From positions 135,448 to 199,447 of the forward strand of contig CAYNFP010000001.1 in assembly GCA_964396655.1 (NCBI GenBank): DNA of 64,000 nt, in the 5' to 3' direction. Each line of letters starts with the position of its first letter. The first letter of the stretch is position 1. The notes beneath the pieces are model-generated. The model saw only the letters and a program-made list of their open reading frames with translations. It was not told the origin of the DNA and did not search any database. Of the stretch, positions 8,497 to 56,627 are shown in pieces. The DNA comes from an uncultured Muribaculaceae bacterium (GTDB taxonomy: Bacteria; Bacillota_I; Bacilli_A; RF39; UBA660). A program made the position numbers and the translations under genes.

Positions 8497-9060
8497 ATGG
8501 TAGATATAACAAGATTTAATAGTTTTAAAAAATTAATCGAATATAACAATAGTATTCGTGAGGAATTTGACAAAGTAGATCAACAAGTACAAAAAATTGT
8601 TAAGAAAATTGTTTCTGATAATTCATACAAAGAAGAGCTTTGGAGGAATACAAAGTATATTGAAAAATTGGAAAAATTAAAAGGATTAGGGCTTACAGGG
8701 ACAATAGGTTATACTATTGATTCTGTTGTAAATGATCATAATAATTATTTAATCGAAGAATTTCATAATACTGATTTATATGAATTATATTGCTCATTAG
8801 GATATGAATGTGAAGAATTAGAACAAGTTTTAGTAGTTTTCGCAAGAATTGAAGCAAATTTAAAAACTTTGAATTTATCAGAAGAAACTATTGATGTAAT
8901 AATTGAGAATATATTTCAAGAATATAAAAGAAGTTTATTGGAAAGACTTCAATATGAAAAAAGTGCTGAGGCATATCGAAAAACAGCTGGAGAAGAAACA
9001 TATAAAACTGATCTTATGACTCTTGGTTTAAAAAATATGCCATCTCAAAATGAAGGCTAA
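8497..9060 (+). CDS. hypothetical acidic protein, paralog A1 (EEFHN motif)
   Basis: Paralogous to 10511-10927; shares the N-terminus and an identical YLIEEFHN motif. Confidence 0.5.
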   Translation: MVDITRFNSFKKLIEYNNSIREEFDKVDQQVQKIVKKIVSDNSYKEELWRNTKYIEKLEKLKGLGLTGTIGYTIDSVVNDHNNYLIEEFHNTDLYELYCSLGYECEELEQVLVVFARIEANLKTLNLSEETIDVIIENIFQEYKRSLLERLQYEKSAEAYRKTAGEETYKTDLMTLGLKNMPSQNEG

Positions 9061-9142
9061 TAAATAAAAAAATATTATAAGAGAATTGTTCTTATAATAT
9101 TTTGTGATAATATAATTGTCAATAGAAAGAGAGAAATAAAAA

Positions 9143-9934
9143 ATGAGTGAAATTTTAAAGTTTAGTACATATAAAGAAATGGATGCATTTTATGGAGAAA
9201 TCAAGTCTTTAGATATTGTGCTTAATTCCTTTAGCTATGGAAGGGATCATATGACAGAAATGTCATATATTTTAGAGGATTATTATGAAAAAATTGCAAA
9301 TAAAGCAATTAAAAACAGCAAAATCGGAGAATCAACACTTAAAATAAAAGAACGTTATAAAGAATATTATAAATATCTATTGAATGAATTTAAAAAATTA
9401 TTAACAGAAGAAGCAAAAGAATTAATTCCTTGGGTAGCTTATGAAATGAATAGTTTTTCAAAAATAAAAGAAGCATTTAGTTTAGAAATAGAAAAAATAG
9501 TTACAAGTGGTGAATTTATAGAAATATTAAAAGAAGCATTATTAAAAGTAACAGGAAGAACTTATTCTTATCATAAAATTTTTGGAAGAATAGTATATGG
9601 TGAAATAGATGGGGATTCAGATAAAATTTTAAGTAATAATCCTTTGGGTAAAAAAGAATATGAAATCTTAGTGGCAGATGATTTCCCTTTAACAAAATTA
9701 CCATTTTCAGAGTTTGAAAAACCTCTTGAAATAGAAATAGAAGAACTGATAAAAGCAAATTTTGTAATATTAGATAATCCTTTTCATAGTGATTTTTCAT
9801 ATTGGGAAAGTCATTTTTGGGAATATGAATTTATTGGTATGCCAAAAGGAGCATATGAAATAATAAATGAAGAAATATTTAAAAGGGTAAAAGAAAATTT
9901 AGAAAATAGTGTTAAATTAACTAGAGAAAAATAA
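9143..9934 (+). CDS. hypothetical acidic protein, paralog B1
   Basis: Paralogous to 10987-11736 (shared ELIPW/ELLPW, DDFPL.KLPF/DDYDI.KVPF and GMP motifs). Confidence 0.5.
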   Translation: MSEILKFSTYKEMDAFYGEIKSLDIVLNSFSYGRDHMTEMSYILEDYYEKIANKAIKNSKIGESTLKIKERYKEYYKYLLNEFKKLLTEEAKELIPWVAYEMNSFSKIKEAFSLEIEKIVTSGEFIEILKEALLKVTGRTYSYHKIFGRIVYGEIDGDSDKILSNNPLGKKEYEILVADDFPLTKLPFSEFEKPLEIEIEELIKANFVILDNPFHSDFSYWESHFWEYEFIGMPKGAYEIINEEIFKRVKENLENSVKLTREK

Positions 9935-10022
9935 AATAATTAAAATTAGATATTTAAATATCTAATTTTTTATGATTTGACATTTATTTATTAATATAAT
10001 ATTCTATATTTAAGAGGTAATT

Positions 10023-10499
10023 ATGATAAGAGGATACAAGGTTTTTAATAAAGATTTTACTAATAGGTATGGTAAGAAGTTTGAAGTTGGTCAAACTTAC
10101 TCTGCTGATGGTCAAGTTAAGTTTGCTGCTGCTCATGGAATCCATTTCTGTACAAATTTAGAAGATGTTTTTAGATATTTTGATGCTGTTGAAGATGAAG
10201 TTACAGTAGCGGAAGTTTCAACAGAAGATTGTGGTGAAAATCTTGTAAAATATGATGAAGAATATAATGGTTATTATGATATGTATGCTTGCAAAACTAT
10301 AAAAATAGAAAGAGTGTTAACAAGAGAAGAAATATTTGAGATGATTATGAAAAAGGGGGAAATTTCAATAAGAAAATTTTTAGCTACTTATAAATTAAAT
10401 GAAGAAGAGAGAGAAAAATTTTTAAGAATGAACACTAATAAATTTTTAAATGGAATATTTGAATATTATCAAAATAAAAATACTTCATATTTTAAATAA
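10023..10499 (+). CDS. hypothetical protein (spacer gene between the paralog pairs)
   Basis: 158-aa ORF with unusually GC-rich codon choice at its 5' end (gct gct gct cat gga atc cat ttc tgt). Confidence 0.4.
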   Translation: MIRGYKVFNKDFTNRYGKKFEVGQTYSADGQVKFAAAHGIHFCTNLEDVFRYFDAVEDEVTVAEVSTEDCGENLVKYDEEYNGYYDMYACKTIKIERVLTREEIFEMIMKKGEISIRKFLATYKLNEEEREKFLRMNTNKFLNGIFEYYQNKNTSYFK

Positions 10500-10510
10500 A
10501 GGAGATATAA

Positions 10511-19853: not shown

Positions 19854-20597
19854 ATGAAAGATAAAATAGCTTTAGTAACTGGAGGAACATCTGGAATTGG
19901 CAAAGAAATAGTAAAAGAATTATTAAATGAAGGTTTAAAAATAATTATTGTTTATGGTCATAATGTGGATCAAATGAACAGTACAAAAAATGAATTTAAA
20001 GAATTTGAAAATAGCTTATTCTTTATACAAGGTGATGTTTCAAAAGAAAATGAAGTAAAAGAATTATTTGAAGAAGTTTCTAAAAGATATAATTGTTTAG
20101 ATTTTTTAATAAACAATGCTGGAACAAATGTGGATGAAGATATAGAAAATGCAAGTTTAGAAACTTATATGAAAGTTGTAAATACAAATTATATAGGAAA
20201 AATGTTATGTATAAAATATGCTACACCATTATTAAAAAAGTCATCATATGCTAGTATTATTAACATTGCTTCAAGTTTAGGAATAAAAGCAGATACAGAG
20301 TGTAGTGCTTATTGTTGCTCAGCCGCAGCAATTATAAAATTAACTGAGTGTGCTGCATTAGAATTATCTAAATACAATATAAGAGTAAATACTGTAAGCC
20401 CAGCATTTACACCAACACCACTTTCTTTAGCTGGTTGGACAGAAGAAGAAATAAAAGCAAAAAAAGAAAGAAATTCAAGGCACAGACTAGGAAAAGTAGA
20501 AGATATAGCAAATGTAGTATTATTTTTAATTTCTGATAAAGCAGATTATATAAATGGGGAAAACATAAGAGTAAATGGCGGTAGTCTTTTAAAATAG
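19854..20597 (+). CDS. short-chain dehydrogenase/reductase (SDR)
   Basis: TGGTSGIGKEI Rossmann motif, NNAG, and catalytic S...Y..xK (SAYCCSAAAIIK). Confidence 0.75.
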   Translation: MKDKIALVTGGTSGIGKEIVKELLNEGLKIIIVYGHNVDQMNSTKNEFKEFENSLFFIQGDVSKENEVKELFEEVSKRYNCLDFLINNAGTNVDEDIENASLETYMKVVNTNYIGKMLCIKYATPLLKKSSYASIINIASSLGIKADTECSAYCCSAAAIIKLTECAALELSKYNIRVNTVSPAFTPTPLSLAGWTEEEIKAKKERNSRHRLGKVEDIANVVLFLISDKADYINGENIRVNGGSLLK

Positions 20598-20606
20598 GAG
20601 GTTTAT

Positions 20607-21002
20607 ATGAAAATATCTACTAAAGGAAGATATGCTTTAAGAGTTATGATTGATTTAGCTATGAATAATAATGATGAATTTATATCTATTAAAGAGATAT
20701 CTGAAAGACAAGAAATATCTAATAAGTATTTAGAACAAATAATATCAAAATTAAATAAAGCTGGGTATTTAAAAACTGCTAGAGGTAATACTGGCGGATA
20801 TATGTTAGCAAAATCTCCTAAAGAATATAAGATAGGAGATATATTAAGAGTAACAGAAGGAAATTTATCTCCAATTAAATGTATATCAGAAATTACTTGT
20901 AATAGAAAATATAATTGTAAATCATATATTTTTTGGAAAGAGTTAGATGACATAATTGAAAATTATGTAGATAGTAAAACATTAGAAGATTTAATTAAAT
21001 AA
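20607..21002 (+). CDS. iscR: Rrf2-family transcriptional regulator, IscR-like (CX5CX5C cluster ligands)
   Basis: MKISTKGRYALRVMIDLA N-terminus and wHTH; cysteines KCISEITCNRKYNC have the CX5CX5C spacing of the IscR Fe-S cluster ligands. Confidence 0.7.
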   Translation: MKISTKGRYALRVMIDLAMNNNDEFISIKEISERQEISNKYLEQIISKLNKAGYLKTARGNTGGYMLAKSPKEYKIGDILRVTEGNLSPIKCISEITCNRKYNCKSYIFWKELDDIIENYVDSKTLEDLIK

Positions 21003-21014
21003 GGGAGGTTTATT

Positions 21015-21518
21015 ATGAAATTACAAAGAGGAAAATTTACAATTGATAATATTAAAGATTTAGACAAAGCAGAACTTGATCCTAAAGATGGTATAAGAAA
21101 AGTTATAGATTTAGATTATATGGGGCAATTTGAATATGAAGGAAATACTATTCCAATTTTAAGAATGTGGATGCAATATTATGGAGATAATTATGTATAT
21201 CAACCATTAAATGTATTTTCAAAAAATGGAAAGCAAATGTATGTTTTTTATGATTCTAATTCTATTACAGAAGAAGAAATAGAAAAGATAATTCAAAGAA
21301 AAATAGAGATAAATTATTCATTATATAGCTATATTAATTATCCAGATGAAGAATTTTATAGTGATTTTTGGTGGGATATTAATAGTGCTTATATGATTTT
21401 CTTTGGCGAAGAAAAGAAAGATTTAATTGAATATTTTCTAAATACCACTTTAGAACGAGATGGTGGTAAAGAAGGAATAAAAAGAAAATTAATTTCTAGC
21501 GGAATAAAATTAAAATAA
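21015..21518 (+). CDS. hypothetical protein
   Basis: 167-aa ORF with a GGGAGG Shine-Dalgarno, sitting between iscR and the nifS/iscU remnant. Confidence 0.4.
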   Translation: MKLQRGKFTIDNIKDLDKAELDPKDGIRKVIDLDYMGQFEYEGNTIPILRMWMQYYGDNYVYQPLNVFSKNGKQMYVFYDSNSITEEEIEKIIQRKIEINYSLYSYINYPDEEFYSDFWWDINSAYMIFFGEEKKDLIEYFLNTTLERDGGKEGIKRKLISSGIKLK

Positions 21519-21608
21519 AAGAATCCCAAAAGCGGATTTTTTTATTTGACTTAATAATAAACTAATTTTACAAGTCCTATTAGATTAGTATGAATTGGAG
21601 TGGCGATT

Positions 21609-21990
21609 ATGAATGACATATATTTAGACAATGCTGCGACTACAAAATTAGATTCAAAAGTATTAGAAGAAATGATGCCTTATTTAACAAAATGAATATG
21701 GTAATGCTTCTTCTATATGTAAACTTGGAAGGAATAATAGAAAATGCTTCAGGAGTAGGAGAGGTCGGAAATCCTGTTTGTTGAGATATATTAAAAATAT
21801 ATTTAAAAGTAGAAAATAATGTTATAACAGATGTTAAATTTAAAACGTTTGGTTGTGGAGTTGCAATTGCATCAAGCAGTATATCAACACAATTGATTAA
21901 AGGAAAAACAATAGAAGAAGCATTAAAAATAACTAATAAAGATGTTGTTGACTTTGTTGGGAAAAATAATATAATAATAGTTATTAATTA
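21609..21990 (+). pseudogene. cysteine desulfurase (iscS/nifS) N-terminus fused to an iscU C-terminal remnant; disrupted by stops and frameshifts
   Basis: Begins MNDIYLDNAATTKLDSKVLEEMMPYLTK then a stop; in another frame ...YGNASSI... (NifS-like). Further on, GNPVC*DILKIYLKVENNVITDVKFKTFGCGVAIASSSISTQLIKGKTIEEALKITNKDVVDFVG is IscU-like, with TGA replacing the conserved Gly of CGD. No intact ORF remains. Confidence 0.7.
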
Positions 21991-22010: not shown

Positions 22011-23123
22011 ATGGTGCCAATAATAGTACCTTTTGTCCCATTTTCAAATACAACAATTGTTAACAAAACAATTGTTTATAGTGATACGGTTTTAAATATA
22101 AAAGAATTAGGGCAAAATTTAAGAGTTACAACAATTTCTGATGTTGGAGAATATTCTTTTGAAAGGTGTTTAAAAATAATTTTTGAAAGTAACCCAAATG
22201 TAATATTTAATACAATACAATATTCTAGAAGTGAAAATAAAGTATATTTTTATACAAATTCTGAGATTTCTACAAAAGCTTGGAATGATACAAAAATCAC
22301 AAAAACGGAATATTCAGCTCTTAATACTGAAGTGTTAGAAGATTTAAAACAATTATTTTTAAGTACTCCTAAAATAGGAGAAGATTATATATCAATATAT
22401 TCTTTAGGAGTGTTTTTAAAAGATAAATATTCTGAAATTCAAGGGGAAATAGATGAATTTAAATCGATTCTGGATGATAAAGCAAAAGAATTTATAGGAA
22501 AAGATTATACTTTTTTGATTAGTTTTGATTGGTCAACCCATGAACTATGTATTACCTTTGTTGATCATTATAGCTATAAAGATAAATCTTTAGACAGAGA
22601 TCATAAATATAGATTTAGTAAAAAAGATGGTGATTTATATATAACTCAATCAGAAAACGGATGGCTCTATAAAGATAAAATTATTCCTTATTTTGGAAAA
22701 GAATTATCTGATTTATATGATTTATTTATAAAAAACAAATACTTTTATACTGTAGATAAAAGCAGAATAAAATTAATTAATTCTGGATTTGCATTAATAA
22801 TTAATGATAGTTTTGTTTCTATATATATATCAAAGTCTGGTTATTTTTATAATGTTGAATTTTCATTATCTAAACATTATTGTTTTGATGAAGAAAGGTA
22901 TAATTGTGAATGTAATTCATACAATATATCTTCTTTATTAGCGGGGAAAGAAAAAGAATTATTAAGAAGGATATATGTAAAAATTGATGATTGTCCTGAA
23001 TGGATGAAACAAAGTTTACACGAAAGAAACCAAAAATATTTAGAACAAGAAAGAATATTAGCAGAGAAACAAGCAAAAAAAGAAAGAGTAAAAGTACGGG
23101 TAAGAAAGTTTTTCCATTTATAA
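22011..23123 (+). CDS. hypothetical protein
   Basis: 370-aa ORF with a basic C-terminal tail; no recognisable motif. Confidence 0.4.
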   Translation: MVPIIVPFVPFSNTTIVNKTIVYSDTVLNIKELGQNLRVTTISDVGEYSFERCLKIIFESNPNVIFNTIQYSRSENKVYFYTNSEISTKAWNDTKITKTEYSALNTEVLEDLKQLFLSTPKIGEDYISIYSLGVFLKDKYSEIQGEIDEFKSILDDKAKEFIGKDYTFLISFDWSTHELCITFVDHYSYKDKSLDRDHKYRFSKKDGDLYITQSENGWLYKDKIIPYFGKELSDLYDLFIKNKYFYTVDKSRIKLINSGFALIINDSFVSIYISKSGYFYNVEFSLSKHYCFDEERYNCECNSYNISSLLAGKEKELLRRIYVKIDDCPEWMKQSLHERNQKYLEQERILAEKQAKKERVKVRVRKFFHL

Positions 23124-23220
23124 AAAAATAAAACTTGTAATATATTTACAAGTTTTTTTATAAAGTTTGTTTTTATATTAATATTTGTTATAATGAGTAT
23201 ACTTAAAAAAGGAGAACTTT

Positions 23221-23922
23221 ATGAATTATAAAAATTTAAATATTCCAAATCATATAGCAATAATATTAGATGGTAATGGTAGATGGGCTTTATCAAGAGG
23301 ATTAACTCGTTTAGAAGGTCATGATGAAGGATTTAAAAGAGCAGAAGAAATAGCAGAATATGCTTTTGATAAAGGTGTTAAGGTTTTAAGTTTATTTGCA
23401 TTTTCTACAGAAAACTTTAAAAGAACAGAAAAAGAAGTCAATCATTTAATGGATATTTTTGCAAATATGTTTACAACTAGATTTAAAAAAATAGCTGAAA
23501 AAGGTATAAAAATTGTTGTATCAGGAAGTAAAGAAAATCTTTCGGATAACGTAATAAATGCAATAGATGAAATGACTCAAAAAACTAAAGAAAATAAAAA
23601 AGGCATTTTAAATATATGTATTAATTATGGAGGACGTTTAGAAATAGTTGATACATATAAAAAGATAATGAAAATGAATGTCAAAGAAGAAGATATTACT
23701 GAAGAATTTATAAGAAAAAACTTATATAATGATCTTCCTAATATAGATTTAATGATTCGTACTAGTGGAGAAGAAAGAATAAGTAATTTTATGTTATATT
23801 TACTTGCTTATGCAGAATTTTATTTTCCCGAAATTCATTGGCCAGATTTCACAAAAAAAGAATTTTATAAAGCAATATGTATTTATAATAAAAGAAATAG
23901 AAGATTTGGTAAAGAAAAATAA
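23221..23922 (+). CDS. uppS: undecaprenyl diphosphate synthase
   Basis: HIAIILDGNGRWA, FAFSTENFKR and other cis-prenyltransferase signatures. Confidence 0.9.
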   Translation: MNYKNLNIPNHIAIILDGNGRWALSRGLTRLEGHDEGFKRAEEIAEYAFDKGVKVLSLFAFSTENFKRTEKEVNHLMDIFANMFTTRFKKIAEKGIKIVVSGSKENLSDNVINAIDEMTQKTKENKKGILNICINYGGRLEIVDTYKKIMKMNVKEEDITEEFIRKNLYNDLPNIDLMIRTSGEERISNFMLYLLAYAEFYFPEIHWPDFTKKEFYKAICIYNKRNRRFGKEK

Positions 23923-24021: not shown

Positions 24022-24157
24022 TAAAATCAAAGAGAATCATTCATTATATTTGGATGATTTTTTAATTTTAAAATATACTTGATTAAAATCAATGTTTTTT
24101 TTATATAAAAATAATGTATAATTTAATTAGTGTAATATATTGGAGGTATTTAAAATT

Positions 24158-25156
24158 ATGAATGAATCTCAAAAGAAAATTATAACCGAATTAATTAAAA
24201 TATATTCCCAAAAAGCAAATATTACTTCTCAAGATGTAATAGATAAAACTATTTTCGATTTAACCTCTAAAAGTCCAGATGAAGCTATAGATTCTATTTT
24301 GATTTCTTTGAATGAATTGATGCAAAAAGGTCTTATTAAACAAGAAGATATTTTTTCTCAAGCGGATTTAATATTTCAATTAAATCCTGAAAAGTATAAA
24401 ACAGTTGATGATTTAATAGATAGATTTAATTGGATTAGATCTATGAATTTAGAATATCCCATTATGTCATTATCACAAAATCATGAATTAATTTTAAGAG
24501 TTTTTCATAATTTTAATTTATTACTTCAAAATCAATTTGATTGTTATTATTTAGGTGGAGTAATGGGATATATAGCAACTAATAATAAATTAGAAAGATA
24601 TCACAATGATTTGGACTTATTTATAAACGAAGAGCAATTGCTTGCTTTAAAACAATTAGTAGATTCAAGTGAAGATTTTGAATTTGTGAGCGGAATGAAT
24701 GGCAAAAAAGGTTCTGGGCATGAGTATAAAATAATTTACAAAGGCACAGAGATGAGTATAGGGCTTTTCCTTTTTGAAAGAGGACCGGATCAAAGCATAA
24801 TTACCAAAGAATATTATTACGATGAAGATGGGGCTTTGTGTGTGGATGAACATCACTGTTCTAAAGAATATACTGAAATGACCTTTTCTAACCAAACAAG
24901 AGAATATAATGGCGCACCTTATAAGATGATGAGTTTAGAAAGTATATACAATTCAAAAAAATGTTCAAGGTTAAAAGACAAACGTGATGCAGAACTTTTA
25001 AAAGACTATGTTGATATGTTAAAAGATTATCAAATTGATGTTGAAAGAAGAAATAATTATGATGTTAAACATAAAAAATTAGATTCTTCAATAATTCATA
25101 CGATTGAAACTGAAATGGCTAGTCAATTATTACCTTCTAAAAATAGTATTTTATGA
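24158..25156 (+). CDS. nucleotidyltransferase-fold protein, lincosamide/aminoglycoside nucleotidyltransferase (Lnu/ANT)-like C-terminal domain with a roughly 120-aa N-terminal extension
   Basis: YYLGGVMGY...HNDLDLFI resembles the GG..G.....R..D.D NTase motif of Lnu(A). The start is moved to ATG 24158 because the ORF-track TTG at 24140 is actually the GGAGG Shine-Dalgarno. Confidence 0.45.
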   Translation: MNESQKKIITELIKIYSQKANITSQDVIDKTIFDLTSKSPDEAIDSILISLNELMQKGLIKQEDIFSQADLIFQLNPEKYKTVDDLIDRFNWIRSMNLEYPIMSLSQNHELILRVFHNFNLLLQNQFDCYYLGGVMGYIATNNKLERYHNDLDLFINEEQLLALKQLVDSSEDFEFVSGMNGKKGSGHEYKIIYKGTEMSIGLFLFERGPDQSIITKEYYYDEDGALCVDEHHCSKEYTEMTFSNQTREYNGAPYKMMSLESIYNSKKCSRLKDKRDAELLKDYVDMLKDYQIDVERRNNYDVKHKKLDSSIIHTIETEMASQLLPSKNSIL

Positions 25157-25207
25157 GTATTAAATAAAATAAAAATAATGTATAATTTATATTAAGGAGA
25201 ATAAAAA

Positions 25208-25771
25208 ATGAATAACAAATATGTAAAAGTAATGTTTGGAGATATGTCAGCAGCTAAAAATGGGTTTAAATACAAAGTAGATGAAGTAAATATTTCTGAA
25301 TATTGGAATCCAAAAGGAACTAACGCTAAAGAAATGGGAGGATTTAACTTTTCTACTGAAGATAAAATAATAAGATGGCTTGTAAGAGGCGATACAATGT
25401 ATGATGTTGTAATTCCTGAAGTTGCTGAAGTTGTGGAGTTAAAAGGACTTGATGTACCACCGGGTATATTTAGATCAAATAAAATAATCATTACAAATCC
25501 AAAACCAATAAATGATAATTTTGCTATGGAATTATATGAAAAATCAGATTTACCAGAAGATGTTTGCTTTAAAACAATCGCGGGTTGTGCAGTAAGAGGT
25601 TATATAAACACAGCAAAAAAAATTATAAGAGATAAAATTAACAAAAATAATATAGATATGGCTTTATCTGAATATAATGAATTTGTAACAAGATATGCAA
25701 AAGTTGATAATCGTGGAGTGGGAATTATACAAAGCATTTTAAATTCAATTAAAAATAATGAAAATCTGTAA
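25208..25771 (+). CDS. hypothetical protein
   Basis: 187-aa ORF preceded by an AGGAGA Shine-Dalgarno and the same aaaaataatgtataattta element that precedes 24158. Confidence 0.4.
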   Translation: MNNKYVKVMFGDMSAAKNGFKYKVDEVNISEYWNPKGTNAKEMGGFNFSTEDKIIRWLVRGDTMYDVVIPEVAEVVELKGLDVPPGIFRSNKIIITNPKPINDNFAMELYEKSDLPEDVCFKTIAGCAVRGYINTAKKIIRDKINKNNIDMALSEYNEFVTRYAKVDNRGVGIIQSILNSIKNNENL

Positions 25772-25830
25772 TCTATTTTACAGTTTTTTTATTTATAATA
25801 ATATGTTAAAATTTATATAGAGGAAAATAT

Positions 25831-26829
25831 ATGTTAATAAATAAAAACTTAATATCTAATTGCTTTCCTAATATTAGACTAATTGATATAACTCATAAAG
25901 ATGGTATAACTTCTCACTTATTGGTAGTTGAAGCCTGTCTGGAAAAAGGATTTAATTTCGGATATATGTTATACTTACCAAATGAAATTTATAATAATAG
26001 TAGCATTTATGTTAAATGTGCAAATAGTGGAATTAATAAAAATAATTTAGAGGAATCAAAAAAGGCTATTTTTGATAGTTCGTTTGATATTGATGCATTT
26101 GTTTATAATTTTTCAAGAGAATATTGTTTTCCAGTATTAAGGCCTTTGATTCCTAGAATTTGTAAAGATTCTAAATCTTTATATACTCATGCATTAAGTA
26201 GTGCAACTTATTTTACTGACGATGAATTATTTAAAAATTTAGATATTCAGTTAATTAATATGATAAAAGACGCTAAAGAAAAACTTGAATTATTGGGTTT
26301 ATTAATAGATTATAAAATAATAATAGAAGGATTTTCTGCAGCAGGAGTATTTGCAAATATATTTACTGTTTTGCATCCGGAGTTAATAAAGTTATGTATA
26401 GCTGGGGGAACTAATGGTAAGTTGATGCTTCCAATTAGTGAGTTAAATGGAAAAAAATTAATTTATCCAGTAGGGACTTATAATATTCCTTATTATAACG
26501 ATGAATATTTTGAAGAGTTTAAATCAGTTAGGCAGCTCTATTATTTAGGAAGTGAAGATCAAAGTGATTCTTTGGCTACCAAAGAAATAAATGGAGAATT
26601 ATTCCCTTTATATGGAGATGCATATACAAAAGAAGAAATGGATTTATTCTTTGAAATATACGGAAGAAAAATTAGTGATAGATGGTTAAAAACAATGCAA
26701 ATATATAATGGACTTGGAATAAATGCTGTATTTAAAACTTATGATGGATATTCACATACTGATGAACCAGCTATAGAAGATATAAAAGTAGAGTTATCAG
26801 ATTTAATTTCTAACATAAAGAGAATTTAG
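25831..26829 (+). CDS. alpha/beta-hydrolase-fold protein (putative esterase)
   Basis: GxSxG-type nucleophile elbow GFSAAG, followed by ...GGTNG... and a C-terminal H. Confidence 0.45.
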   Translation: MLINKNLISNCFPNIRLIDITHKDGITSHLLVVEACLEKGFNFGYMLYLPNEIYNNSSIYVKCANSGINKNNLEESKKAIFDSSFDIDAFVYNFSREYCFPVLRPLIPRICKDSKSLYTHALSSATYFTDDELFKNLDIQLINMIKDAKEKLELLGLLIDYKIIIEGFSAAGVFANIFTVLHPELIKLCIAGGTNGKLMLPISELNGKKLIYPVGTYNIPYYNDEYFEEFKSVRQLYYLGSEDQSDSLATKEINGELFPLYGDAYTKEEMDLFFEIYGRKISDRWLKTMQIYNGLGINAVFKTYDGYSHTDEPAIEDIKVELSDLISNIKRI

Positions 26830-26848
26830 ATAAGAAAGGAGTGAAAAT

Positions 26849-27304
26849 ATGGAAGATAAACCAAAGGTAATATCAGAATATGCTTATAATATTATGAGAA
26901 TATGTAAGTTAAATGGTTGTGATAGAATAAAAAATTTGCAAGAATATATAAAAGAAATATATTGGAATTCTTCTTACCTTACATATCCAGAATTATATAG
27001 TAATCTACTTGGTGTTGTATTAGAAATTTGTTCTGAACATGAAATAAAATGTATTTTGCAATATGACATACCAGAACGCTTTAGAAATAAAGTATATGAA
27101 AGTGGTAAATTTGATAGTTTACCAATTGATTATGAAGATTTATGTAAGGTTTTGATTACTAAGTTAACTTTTATACGTGTAAAAGAAAATGATGAATATT
27201 TGTTTTCTGTTAAAACAAAAAATTCTATTATGACAATTGATGATTATGAAAACAGCTCAAATAACGAAGTTGTGATAAGAAAGAGATTAAAATATAATGA
27301 ATAG
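26849..27304 (+). CDS. hypothetical protein
   Basis: 151-aa ORF overlapping the next gene by 8 nt (operon). Confidence 0.4.
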   Translation: MEDKPKVISEYAYNIMRICKLNGCDRIKNLQEYIKEIYWNSSYLTYPELYSNLLGVVLEICSEHEIKCILQYDIPERFRNKVYESGKFDSLPIDYEDLCKVLITKLTFIRVKENDEYLFSVKTKNSIMTIDDYENSSNNEVVIRKRLKYNE

Positions 27305-37094: not shown

Positions 37095-38789
37095 ATGAAA
37101 AATAAAGATATAGATAATGAAGAATATAGAGATTTAGAAGAACATAGATTATCAGTATTAAAAAGAACAGGAATTATAATTTTAGTTATTTTAGGTATAA
37201 TGATTATTTTCTTGTTTTTAAAAAGTTGTACTAAAACAGAGGATAATGATTTAAGTAAAACATTATTAGAAGCTGGTAAAGAATATTATGAATATAATGA
37301 GCATTTACTTCCGACAGCGGTAGGAGATTGCAAAAATGTTACTTTAACAACATTATCACAAGAAGGATTAATAAATAAAGCTAAGTATGCTGATTGTGGT
37401 AATGATAGTACATATGTAAAAGTTTGTAAGTTAGAAAGTGGTAAATATCATTTTGTAGCAATAATGGATTGTGTTAATGAAAAAACAGATGATTTATATG
37501 GAAGTTGGAAAGAAGGAACTGAAAAAGATATTATTTCTGATTCTTCTGATATAAAATTTTTCTTCCAAGTTCAATATTTGGATACAACTAATGCAAATGT
37601 AGGAAATAGTGAAGAATATTGGGAAGATGAGATTCCATATTCAAAATATAAAACAGAAGCTGTAACTAAGTATTATAGATATAAAGATTTGCAATATATT
37701 TGGAATATTACATCTAAAAGATATTATCCAGGGGATGCTACAAGCATAGCGAATATAAAAGAATATTATATAACTTCACCAAGTGCTGATTATAAATATA
37801 AAGATAATGAAAATACTAAAGTATCAAAATATTTTAGTACAACAGAAGGAAAAATATATTGGGTAGATGAAAGTGGAAACCGTAACTTTGCTTTAACAGC
37901 CCCAGATAACGTTTATATTTATCCAGATAATCCTGTTTATCAAACAGGATATGCAACCAGAGTATGGACTGAAACATCTAAGCCTGTAACAGCGGATTCC
38001 ACTCAATTTTGGTATTGTTCAAGCCCAAATGATGAGAATCAAATAAGATCAACTGTGCCATGTGAAAATAACGTTAATAATTACACAATAACAGAAAGAA
38101 TGATATATTCTTGTGATGGAGGCCTTACTGAAGTAGGCCAAAATGGCGTATGTTATCAATGTACTGATGGCAAAGGTTTAAGAACTGATAGAAGTTCTTG
38201 TGGATATTATAGTGATTATGGGAATTATAGTAAAACTCCTTGTGATACTTCATCTGATTTATGTACAACTAAAATATTTACTGCATATCAATGGTATAAA
38301 TTAGTTGATGGTGAAAGGAAGTATTATCCAAGTAATTCTACTACTGCTTCAGGTGAGAAAACATATTATGGAGAATCTCCAGTAACAAGTCTTATTAAAG
38401 ATGTAACAACCACAACTACCGGATGGAAATGGTATAAAAAGTTGGATACTGAGACTACAAGTTATTATTCAACATCTCCTCAAACAGGAGCAACTAAAAC
38501 AGATACAAGTAGATGGACTGACTTCACAAAATGGTCAACTGCGGTACCTCAAAGTTTGGGTTCTGAAGGGACAAGGATGATTGAAACAAGAAATAAAATT
38601 AAATTGAAACAAATAACAGGAGATACTGATAGTTGGTTAAATTATAATGAAAAATATATGGAGTTAGATTCAATATTAACTTCACTTCAAGCTAAAGGTT
38701 ACAAAGTTTATTCACTTGATGATATAACATCTAGTGGCGAATTAAAATATAAAGTAAAGTTATTTGTTAGAAACAAGGAAGTGGAATAA
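37095..38789 (+). CDS. membrane-anchored protein with a large Cys/Tyr/Trp/Thr-rich extracytoplasmic domain
   Basis: N-in TM (GIIILVILGIMIIFLFL), then about 520 aa with at least 20 Cys and abundant Y/W/T. Overlaps the next gene by 1 nt (TAATG). Confidence 0.5.
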   Translation: MKNKDIDNEEYRDLEEHRLSVLKRTGIIILVILGIMIIFLFLKSCTKTEDNDLSKTLLEAGKEYYEYNEHLLPTAVGDCKNVTLTTLSQEGLINKAKYADCGNDSTYVKVCKLESGKYHFVAIMDCVNEKTDDLYGSWKEGTEKDIISDSSDIKFFFQVQYLDTTNANVGNSEEYWEDEIPYSKYKTEAVTKYYRYKDLQYIWNITSKRYYPGDATSIANIKEYYITSPSADYKYKDNENTKVSKYFSTTEGKIYWVDESGNRNFALTAPDNVYIYPDNPVYQTGYATRVWTETSKPVTADSTQFWYCSSPNDENQIRSTVPCENNVNNYTITERMIYSCDGGLTEVGQNGVCYQCTDGKGLRTDRSSCGYYSDYGNYSKTPCDTSSDLCTTKIFTAYQWYKLVDGERKYYPSNSTTASGEKTYYGESPVTSLIKDVTTTTTGWKWYKKLDTETTSYYSTSPQTGATKTDTSRWTDFTKWSTAVPQSLGSEGTRMIETRNKIKLKQITGDTDSWLNYNEKYMELDSILTSLQAKGYKVYSLDDITSSGELKYKVKLFVRNKEVE

Positions 38790-54520: not shown

Positions 54521-54955
54521 ATGAGACTTTATTATATTTTTTCTATTAAGGAAGATATATATCGAATAACAGAAAGTAATCCTGGGAAGCTTTATAATAT
54601 ATTAGAAAATATTTATAAGTTAAAGAAAGAAGATGCTAATATTGGTTTTAAGCTATTTGAAAAAACCTGTAACTTTTTAGATAAAAAAAATATAAATCTC
54701 CTAATAAAAAATTTAAATTATGATAATTATAGTTATACTTGTTTTAGAAATTCTCATTTAATAAATGATTTTTATAAAAACGAAACAACAAAACTAACTA
54801 TAAATTATTCTCATATGTTTATGAAAACTAATGTTATGTATCCTAAATTTTTCAATGAAATAAAGAATTTAAAAAACATATTTGTATGTGATTTTGTTAA
54901 CGAAGATTATTTCTTTTTAAAGAAAATAAATTTAAAAGAATACAGTTATTTATAA
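54521..54955 (+). CDS. hypothetical protein
   Basis: 144-aa ORF. Confidence 0.35.
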   Translation: MRLYYIFSIKEDIYRITESNPGKLYNILENIYKLKKEDANIGFKLFEKTCNFLDKKNINLLIKNLNYDNYSYTCFRNSHLINDFYKNETTKLTINYSHMFMKTNVMYPKFFNEIKNLKNIFVCDFVNEDYFFLKKINLKEYSYL

Positions 54956-55053
54956 ACAAGTTTAATTGAAATAAAAAATTTTAAAATTTTAATAGAAAAT
55001 AGATTTAAAATTAAAATATTATAATGTATAATTAATATGGAGGTAAGATATTT

Positions 55054-55263
55054 ATGATATGGGACATTTTATATGTAGTATTTGGACTTATTGGGGGAAT
55101 TGTTATTGGATTTTTAATTGCTAAAGCAGTTTTTAAAAAACAATTAAAAGATAACCCTCCAATTAATGAAGAAATGATAAAAACTTTAATGAGAGGAATG
55201 GGAAGAAATCCTAGTCAAAAACAAGTAAATCAATTGATGAAACAAATGGGGAAATATAACTAA
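55054..55263 (+). CDS. yneF: UPF0154/YneF-family small membrane protein
   Basis: [24 protein letters not shown]...[29 protein letters not shown] matches the YneF family. Confidence 0.7.
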
Positions 55264-55264
55264 A

Positions 55265-55729
55265 ATGGCAAGAAGAATTTCAAGAAATAAAAATTATTCT
55301 AAAAGTAAACCAAAAAGTCATGATAAAAAGCCTATGCCTAAAAAAGTTCCGGAACCTGTAACTGAGAAAACTCGTGAAGAAGATAATATTTTATATAAAG
55401 TAAAAGATTTGTATCTTGGATATGTGGGTTATTACGATAATAATGGAGTTGATATTGAAGATATTCATGTATTTACAAATGTTAGTGAAGAACAGGCATT
55501 TGATTTAAATTCAAATAGTATTATTTTTTCTAAAGGCACCGGAAGAGTATTTTTCTATAAATCATTAATTTCATTTGAATTTTTAACTATGAAATCAAGA
55601 ATTAACTATGTGGCTTTTCATAGGAAAAATGCTTTAACATCATCATATTATTATAAAGATTTATATAAAAAATTTTTAAGTATTAAAAACATAACTCCAT
55701 ACACTTTAGAATTAGGATTAAAAAGGTAG
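55265..55729 (+). CDS. hypothetical protein with a basic N-terminus
   Basis: 154-aa ORF 1 nt after yneF. Confidence 0.35.
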   Translation: MARRISRNKNYSKSKPKSHDKKPMPKKVPEPVTEKTREEDNILYKVKDLYLGYVGYYDNNGVDIEDIHVFTNVSEEQAFDLNSNSIIFSKGTGRVFFYKSLISFEFLTMKSRINYVAFHRKNALTSSYYYKDLYKKFLSIKNITPYTLELGLKR

Positions 55730-56627
55730 TACTAATAACCGTGGCTATTAATCTATATTTAAATATAAGCTTAAAATTTATATTGTAATCACTTAATATT
55801 GACATAATTTGTGAGTGAATAGATAAACCACAAAATGTTAGGGCAGATACACATAAGGTAAACTTTATACTAAAATCAGTAGATAAACTACTGATTTTAT
55901 TTATTCCAGTAGTTAACTCAAATATAGATGATAATATACTATCTATAATTGGATTTATATGAATATAATTATTAAATAAATTTATAATTATAGTAAAAAT
56001 AATTATATTTCCTAATATAATCATTAAAGTTTTGAAAGAATTAATAAATGAATCTTTTAATATAATAGTTAAATTTTGATTGTTTTTTATTTCTATTTTT
56101 TTATTTAATTCATTAACTATAATTTTATTTCTAATAAATAATCCTAAAATAAAGTTAATTAAATAAATAGTAAGAAGCATTATAATTCCTATAAAAATAT
56201 CATTAAATAAAATATATCCTATTATAGTTATAACAAAAAATGGGTTAGGTAAATATGTAATTATAAGTAATTTAGTTGCTTCTTCTACAGAAATAATTTT
56301 CTTATCTAGAAAATCCTTTATGTATTTAGCATTAGATGGATGGCCCGTTAATAATGATAAAATTATTATTGATAAAGATATATTACTTATCTTTAATATT
56401 TTAGCTAATATATTTTTACCAATAATTGAAATATAATACTGAAAATTATATTCAAGTAAAATACTATTTAAAACAAAAAACGGAAATAATGTTACAAATA
56501 GTTTATTCATAAATAGTTCTATAGATTCTTTAACACTTGTTATTAATATACTAGGATTTATTAATAGTAAAATTTCTAATATAACTATAGTTAATATAAA
56601 AAATATATTGTTTTTTTCTTTTGTCAT
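55683..56627 (-). CDS. polytopic membrane protein (YlbJ/nucleoside-recognition-like; tentative)
   Basis: 314 aa with 8 or more TM helices; divergent from the ylbL-like gene. Confidence 0.35.
   Translation of the reverse strand: MTKEKNNIFFILTIVILEILLLINPSILITSVKESIELFMNKLFVTLFPFFVLNSILLEYNFQYYISIIGKNILAKILKISNISLSIIILSLLTGHPSNAKYIKDFLDKKIISVEEATKLLIITYLPNPFFVITIIGYILFNDIFIGIIMLLTIYLINFILGLFIRNKIIVNELNKKIEIKNNQNLTIILKDSFINSFKTLMIILGNIIIFTIIINLFNNYIHINPIIDSILSSIFELTTGINKISSLSTDFSIKFTLCVSALTFCGLSIHSQIMSILSDYNINFKLIFKYRLIATVISTTFLILILKCMELCF

Follow-up and report, generated by a model that had tools for sequence, protein, structure and literature searches.

In a 64,000-nucleotide stretch of contig CAYNFP010000001.1 (GenBank assembly GCA_964396655.1; hereafter the window), we find an iscS-iscU operon of iron-sulfur (Fe-S) cluster biogenesis, NifS/NifU in type, that has very probably been inactivated in the recent past, next to a gene for an Rrf2-family, IscR-like regulator that is still intact. 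What is left of the cysteine desulfurase gene iscS and the scaffold gene iscU is a 344-nt remnant (21609-21952) with lesions of several kinds. The features of the locus are collected in Table 1.

The regulator was used to scan species-representative genomes, which yielded 23 loci, mostly from gut metagenome-assembled genomes (MAGs) labelled Clostridia or Clostridium with a G+C content of 25-30%. Four closer relatives, L030 to L033, came from a later protein search, after which their contigs were fetched; their Rrf2 proteins are 92% (L033) and 83-84% (L030-L032) identical to that of the window. All four carry intact genes for Rrf2, IscS (392-393 aa), IscU (138 aa) and UppS at the same chromosomal position as the locus in the window. 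Upstream, the window, L030 and L031 have in common cdsA, rseP, a gene of 121 aa and one for an HD-domain protein, and 3' of uppS the window shares genes of 187, 332 and about 150 aa together with a DUF4932 gene with L030 and L033, and in part with L031 and L032. On the tRNA-Arg side, the L032 contig starts within the tRNA-Arg gene and L033 has a tRNA-Arg-like stretch, and the cargo between tRNA-Arg and Rrf2 differs among the relatives or is missing altogether. Because four close relatives carry an intact syntenic operon, the window represents the derived state. The comparison shows an ancestral order of tRNA-Arg, Rrf2, a terminator, an operator-controlled promoter, iscS, iscU, a second terminator and uppS; in the relatives the regulator thus has its own terminator, and iscSU is driven by a separate promoter under operator control. 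The decay of an isc operon, the central claim of an earlier reading of this DNA (the original prediction), is borne out by this synteny and by a DNA identity to the L033 operon of 88-91%, which is far beyond chance.

Table 1. Features of the decayed iscS-iscU locus and its flanks (window coordinates).
Feature	Position	Strand	Remarks
SDR-family gene, island cargo	19854..20597	+	Pfam adh_short_C2, E=4e-52; abuts the Rrf2 ribosome-binding site
Rrf2-family IscR-like regulator, 131 aa, intact	20607..21002	+	PF02082, E=3e-38
p167, inserted 167-aa gene	21015..21518	+	12 nt after the Rrf2 stop; own GGGAGG ribosome-binding site
Weak terminator after p167, stem AATCC/GGATT then T7	21522..21543	+	Read from sequence; L033/L014 alignment
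Decayed iscS promoter	21546..21574	+	-35 TTGACT (21546-51) kept; -10 TACAAG (21569-74)
Remnant Rrf2 operator AGTCCTATTAGATTAGTATGAAT	21573..21595	+	L033 has ATTCCTATTAGATTAGTATGAAT; left half-site mutated
iscS remnant, codons 1-45	21609..21744	+	Aminotran_5, E=6e-7 on repaired N-terminus
Deletion junction AATAGAAAA, 9 nt	21736..21744	+	iscS codon 45 joined to iscU codon 20
iscU remnant, codons about 20-95 of 138	21737..21952	+	NifU_N, E=8e-28 (stop masked)
Promoter-like site TTGACT, 16 nt, TATAAT	21948..21975	+	11/12 consensus, top match; straddles the iscU breakpoint
p370, 370-aa gene	22011..23123	+	Between iscU remnant and uppS; absent there in L030-L033
Hairpin ACTTGTAA-TATAT-TTACAAGT then T-run	23133..23160	+	Aligns with the L032 iscU terminator; now after p370
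uppS, undecaprenyl diphosphate synthase	23221..23922	+	PF01255; conserved 3' neighbour of iscU in relatives

Reading of iscS from its ATG at 21609 proceeds for 28 codons and ends at a TGA (21693-95). An A-run at 21689-21692 has four A residues where all relatives have three, which shifts the frame after codon 27 and leads into this stop; the iscS sequence continues in another frame as EYGNASSICKLGRNNRK, and the third frame holds the iscU part, which reads IENASGVGEVGNPVC, a stop and then DILKIYLKVENNVITDVKFKTFGCGVAIASSS. The iscS remnant also has a Cys in place of an invariant Tyr, and it matches only positions 1-38 of the 371 of the Aminotran_5 model, leaving the class-V aminotransferase domain incomplete. 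At the junction with iscU, 1,115 nt are missing relative to L033 and 1,114 nt relative to L032. The 9-nt sequence AATAGAAAA found at this junction is present twice in L033, at iscS codons 43-45 and at iscU codons 19-21, and the deletion relative to L033, which covers iscS codons 46-393 and iscU codons 1-19, bears the pattern of a microhomology-mediated event between 9-nt direct repeats. Within the iscU piece, the glycine of the CGD motif that follows the first Cys, a Gly in all relatives, has been lost through a GGA to TGA change (21782-84), and two further substitutions, Ala to Val in GCGAAIA and Glu to Gln in STE, fall at otherwise invariant positions. The scaffold domain is interrupted and incomplete (NifU_N model positions 20-96 of 127): the piece has lost 19 residues at the N-terminus and ~43 at the C-terminus, the latter with the third Cys ligand, which belongs to the conserved HCS segment. 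Homology to iscU ends at ~21952 and returns only at ~23116-23160, in the iscU-uppS spacer, so that ~1.17 kb of other DNA replaces the ~43 last iscU codons. From these lesions, the remnant would be expected to yield no functional protein. The original prediction had described 28 codons of a desulfurase, a frameshifted NifS-like stretch and a TGA at the CGD glycine, and each of these elements lies where it had placed them; its IscU piece is likewise real, though it covers residues about 20-95 of 138 and so comes from the middle of IscU and not from the C-terminal half.

The control region upstream of iscS has decayed as well. In L033 and L030-L032 the -10 element of the iscS promoter is TATAAT, as against TACAAG in the window, and the decayed promoter is not among the promoter-like sites listed by a consensus scan. 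A motif ATTCCTA-N9-TAGGAAT, which we regard as the Rrf2 operator, occurs with 0-2 mismatches at the iscS promoters of eight relatives (L003, L005, L009, L012, L014, L030, L032 and L033), where the palindrome overlaps the -35 element and/or the start region of the promoter; in the window, one T to G change alters both the -10 element and the left half-site of this operator. On the other side of the regulator, homology to L033 and L030-L032 begins at 20594-20604, only 3-13 nt before the Rrf2 ATG, and alignment shows an SDR gene in place of what would have been the regulator's ancestral upstream promoter region. Between the regulator and the remnant, synteny with the four intact relatives confirms the earlier claim that a 167-aa gene (p167) has been inserted: the T-run after p167 aligns with that of the ancestral Rrf2 terminator, whose stem has been replaced by p167 and its ribosome-binding site. 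Replacement of the iscU 3' end by a second gene (p370), decay of the promoter, microhomology at the junction and loss of the regulator's upstream promoter region are features that the original prediction did not contain.

All of these lesions arose on the window lineage once it had diverged from that of L033. A 1.1-kb deletion between the two copies of AATAGAAAA removed most of iscS and the start of iscU, an extra A put the leftover iscS out of frame, and the CGD glycine codon of iscU turned into TGA. The 3' third of iscU was swapped for a cassette carrying p370, the iscS -10 element and the left half of the operator were damaged by substitution, p167 entered behind the Rrf2 stop codon and ahead of the T-run of the Rrf2 terminator, and the SDR gene displaced the regulator's own upstream promoter region. 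Rrf2 would now be co-transcribed as SDR-Rrf2-p167. The p370 gene is probably driven by the promoter-like site that straddles the iscU breakpoint, which would make it a new promoter whose -35 element lies at the breakpoint itself.

Several lines of evidence indicate that the decay is young. DNA identity to L033 is 93.1% in Rrf2, 88.2% in the promoter and iscS 5' end, 91.0% in the iscU fragment and 91.8% in the uppS region; because the identity of the remnant approaches that of its functional neighbours, little time would have passed since inactivation. With L030-L032 as outgroups in a relative-rate test, 13 changes in the iscU fragment were window-derived and 2 were L033-derived (two-sided binomial p about 0.007), against 9 and 13 in Rrf2 and 21 and 25 in uppS by the same rule. 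The iscU fragment thus evolves faster, and on the window branch only, as expected of a young pseudogene. Compared with more distant relatives, its codon-position pattern is still like that of a selected gene, and most of its history therefore appears to have passed under selection. With regard to a displaced copy, a search with the L033 IscS found no protein at 85-100% identity in a collection of 5.8 billion proteins that includes this genome, and a displaced orthologous copy therefore does not exist. Relaxed selection across the whole lineage was also considered and rejected: an apparent excess of nonsynonymous changes in Rrf2 and uppS on the window branch vanished under a broader test, in which five genes under strict polarisation gave 41 synonymous and 55 nonsynonymous changes for the window and 41 and 60 for L033 (Fisher p=0.77).

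The claim that the regulator is an intact IscR-type Rrf2 protein with a CX5CX5C motif holds up in its particulars. The protein scores well above the Rrf2 family cut-offs (131.3 bits against 30 for PF02082, 139.8 against 73.3 for TIGR00738), its cysteines (C92-x5-C98-x5-C104) are invariant in 16 orthologues, and at all 30 invariant alignment columns of these orthologues, those of the three Cys included, it has the shared residue. It falls below the NCBIfam cut-offs for the IscR equivalogs, with 125.4 bits against 207.55 for TIGR02010 and 95.6 against 275 for NF008110, and also below that for the CymR equivalog (123.4 bits against 195) while keeping three Cys; at position 107 it has a Tyr and not the His of E. 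coli IscR, the clade consensus there being C-K-T-Y-x-F-W. Because it lies below both the IscR and the CymR cut-offs and has this Tyr, the protein is on sequence grounds best described as an IscR-like Rrf2 protein that falls outside the E. coli IscR equivalog. A ligand other than His107 may serve in it, as in other Rrf2 proteins. Across the relatives, the orthologous gene adjoins iscSU in L003, L005, L009, L012, L014, L023 and L030-L033 and sufCBDS in L004, L013 and L017. A different and partial arrangement is seen in L007 (6001-7555) and L010 (6001-7555), where Rrf2 overlaps iscS and iscU does not lie in the fetched flank. A 116-aa antisense open reading frame (ORF) within the Rrf2 gene (window 20603-20953, minus strand) has tblastn matches in all relatives; it was rejected as a gene, since these matches merely mirror the conserved sense Rrf2 gene.

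If both isc genes are dead, Fe-S clusters must come from elsewhere, and by far the most likely source would be SUF or a foreign iscSU at another place in the genome, of which SUF, the system suggested by the original prediction, would be the more plausible. Within the window, tblastn with SufC, SufB, SufD, SufS, IscS, IscU and MnmA gave, apart from the remnant itself, matches only to an unrelated ABC ATPase and to a PP-loop protein, and Pfam annotation of the other ORFs of at least 100 aa gave no suf, isc or nif assembly genes. One Rrf2-operator architecture heads suf genes in L004 (6001-10875), L013 (4351-5987) and L017 (5756-9336) and isc genes in L003, L005, L009, L014 and L030-L033: sufC in L013 is preceded by the same double-operator promoter, and L004 and L017 have related sites between the -35 and -10 elements of the promoter upstream of Rrf2-sufCBDS. 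This distribution suggests that, across the clade, the Fe-S system (ISC or SUF) has been exchanged at the level of the locus under a single regulator. Because orthologous Rrf2 genes and operators of the same type precede sufCBDS in these three relatives, control of SUF by the window regulator is plausible by analogy; the retained protein would then act on the replacement system through ATTCCTA-N9-TAGGAAT operators. The original prediction held that the regulator has possibly been retargeted and proposed a look for operator motifs upstream of other genes. In the 64 kb no such site emerged: at two or fewer mismatches the dead iscS promoter, with its mutated operator, gives the sole match, and at three or fewer there are 13 sites against 11.3 expected, which is chance level.

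An artefact of assembly or sequencing, in which the real genome would carry an intact iscS-iscU and the remnant would be a collapsed or chimeric assembly, is extremely improbable. MAG-type assemblies may collapse repeats, and the junction does sit in a 9-nt repeat, but a repeat of that length is far too short for assembly collapse, and Logan assemblies of two runs, SRR8925775 and SRR8925805, match the window with 100% identity along 9,257 and 6,915 bases, the entire locus included. Moreover, at least six separate lesions are present and differ in kind (a deletion, a single inserted nucleotide, a mutation to a stop codon, the insertion of two genes, and substitutions in the promoter), the fragment has accumulated an excess of substitutions, and the protein collection holds no intact orthologous IscS of this organism. 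Recoding deserves even less credence. Here TGA would be read as an amino acid (under code 4 or as selenocysteine), or a programmed frameshift would give a fused IscS-IscU protein, and both in-frame stops are indeed TGA. Yet TGA is an ordinary stop that ends 7 of the 61 ORFs in the window, tryptophan is encoded there by TGG (94 times), the TGA in iscU replaces a Gly and neither a Trp nor a Cys, and the iscS and iscU parts lie in different frames. What refutes recoding is that domains are missing: IscS codons 46-393, with the pyridoxal phosphate-binding and catalytic regions, are gone, as are the IscU N-terminus and third Cys ligand. Assembly error and code 4, the two ways in which the original prediction might have failed, are thus excluded.

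Inactivation of the operon beneath a surviving regulator nevertheless has several observations weighing against it. The two matching runs have neighbouring accessions and may belong to one study, so that they show a reproducible assembly and not fixation across the species. A functional operator was not found in the window, which holds no direct sign of a surviving target of the regulator, and neither was a compensating Fe-S system found within the 64 kb. Clostridium perfringens has no suf genes, for which reason its Rrf2-iscS-iscU-trmU cluster is regarded as the one Fe-S system of that species (PMC2940859), and a backup system is therefore not to be assumed in this class. Had ISC been the sole system here as well, the canonical Fe-S machinery would have been lost and an unrecognised replacement or a partner organism would be needed, a scenario that we consider very unlikely; were it true, the regulator, p167 and p370 would be the first candidates to examine. 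Finally, strictly polarised changes in Rrf2 number 4 nonsynonymous and 0 synonymous on the window branch against 1 and 5 on that of L033, a weak hint, from very small counts, of altered or relaxed constraint. Together with the loss or mutation of the regulator's native promoter region and of the only recognisable operator in the window, this change pattern would also suit an orphan regulator, one that has been left without its sole target and is itself being lost, although mutation has so far missed it. We think this unlikely: besides its 30 retained invariant positions, the gene has a good ribosome-binding site and an operon setting, and orthologues in L006 and L008 are intact although no iscSU or suf genes adjoin them in the stretch fetched, so that the family is not bound to one adjacent target. 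A slightly better case, though still an improbable one, can be made for co-option of the remnant, whose 3' end would supply the -35 element of the p370 promoter and perhaps a leader, and this would be compatible with inactivation of the operon. The promoter-like site at the iscU breakpoint is the best in 3.7 kb and lies 36 nt upstream of the p370 start, and p370 re-uses the ancestral iscU terminator. However, promoter-like matches in the region are no commoner than in shuffled, AT-rich sequence (31 against 29.6 expected), recency explains the low divergence of the fragment equally well, and only its last few bases would be needed.

The ancestral state, as seen in L030-L033, L003, L005, L009 and L014, matches in gene order and gene types the cpe1786 (Rrf2)-iscS-iscU-trmU cluster of C. 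perfringens (André et al. 2010, PMC2940859), and a downstream mnmA/trmU gene like that of C. perfringens is also found in L009 and L023. The difference is that the C. perfringens cluster is intact, whereas the window has lost both biosynthetic genes to decay and has gained two unrelated ones by insertion. Among solved structures the best match to the window regulator is 4CIC, a BadM/Rrf2-family protein (E=5e-29 over the full length), with CymR and E. coli IscR next. We take 4CIC to be the IscR of Thermincola potens, which is reportedly linked to a suf operon; it shares with the window protein an Rrf2 winged-helix fold and three Cys in the C-terminal part but differs in Cys spacing, which in the window is C-x5-C-x5-C. 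E. coli IscR (PDB 4HF0/4HF1) has the Rrf2 fold, Cys92, Cys98 and Cys104 at the same positions and a conserved Glu43, and, as in E. coli, the orthologue of the window regulator heads the isc locus in relatives. In contrast, the window regulator has Tyr for His107 and falls below the IscR equivalog cut-off, and the relatives place a terminator after the regulator and give iscSU its own promoter. The operator ATTCCTA-N9-TAGGAAT is not known as a type 1 or type 2 motif of E. coli IscR, and its palindrome, with GGAAT in it, resembles the CymR box. CymR of B. subtilis and S. aureus (PDB 2Y75, 3T8R) provides the second-best structural relatives (E=1e-24), although the Cys-bearing segment is missing or unaligned in B. 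subtilis CymR (2Y75) where the window regulator has its three Cys. As for the lesions, microhomology-mediated deletion between 9-nt direct repeats, homopolymer slippage that adds a base to a run of A residues, mutation to a stop codon and decay of the promoter are the standard repertoire of bacterial pseudogenes; the decay is ordinary in kind and unusual only in striking an Fe-S biogenesis operon.

The locus offers a base-by-base view of an operon of an essential pathway being dismantled while its regulator survives, with the decay dated as younger than the divergence from a relative of ~92% identity. The interchangeable coupling of ISC and SUF to one Rrf2-operator-promoter module should help when Fe-S regulation is annotated in low-GC gut Clostridia that have not been cultured. 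The importance of the decay would rise only if the complete genome had no other Fe-S assembly system.

Both inserted genes belong to families without a recognised function in our searches. For p167, 24 homologues at 42-55% identity were found, which mark it as real and conserved; the genes around them vary, with Bro-N, HamA/DEAD, amidase and helix-turn-helix (HTH) genes among them. Profile searches gave no family match for p167, and its confidently predicted structure (pLDDT 88.8) matched no fold in the PDB. The p370 family comprises 359 cluster representatives at E<=1e-3, and p370 had no match in Pfam, NCBIfam, PHROG or PADLOC. Neither gene is flanked by mobile-element genes or by direct or inverted repeats that would convince, and Rfam gave no RNA family match at the locus or close to it. 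The gap between the Rrf2 stop and the operator-controlled promoter has gained different DNA or genes in at least four lineages: an extra 580 nt in L005 (6397-6974), two extra ORFs in L011 (6588-7645), an extra ORF that is antitoxin-like by eye in L013 (4903-5208), and p167 in the window (gap at 21003-21540). Judging by these loci the gap is a recurrent insertion site, and p167 therefore need not be linked to the decay.

Upstream of the SDR gene, the 3' half of a tRNA-Arg(CCT) gene with its downstream hairpin (17729-17860) is repeated 2 kb away at 19753-19832 with ~80% identity. An Asp/Glu-racemase gene and a Fic gene lie between the two tRNA-Arg copies, and this flanked stretch looks like an integrated island without an integrase. 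The same tRNA site holds a phage-type integrase in L033 and an unrelated gene of ~400 aa in L030 and L031.

The window has a G+C content of 22-33%, mostly 21-29%, and Pfam identifies ordinary chromosomal genes in it, namely dnaE, cdsA, rseP, enolase, der, spoIIGA, sigE, sigG, lexA, mraZ/mraW and a gene for a penicillin-binding protein. From this gene content we read the host chromosome as probably that of a low-GC, spore-forming, gut Clostridia-type bacterium. Many ORFs of 140-340 aa at 8497-11736, 24140-27304 and 54521-56627 have no Pfam, NCBIfam or PHROG match, and several of these, such as the 187-aa and 332-aa genes that follow uppS, have conserved counterparts in L030-L033. Between the sigE-like and sigG-like genes lie two large ORFs of 564 and 811 aa (37095-41224, plus strand), which likewise have no Pfam match and a locally raised G+C fraction (0.27-0.31). 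An ornate large extremophilic (OLE) RNA (RF01071, 356 bits) is present at 42406-42969 on the plus strand, at full length with model positions 1-616 of 616 covered. The gene immediately upstream of this RNA encodes a sigma factor and is probably sigG; downstream, the RNA is overlapped by an ORF (42891-43547) without a Pfam match.

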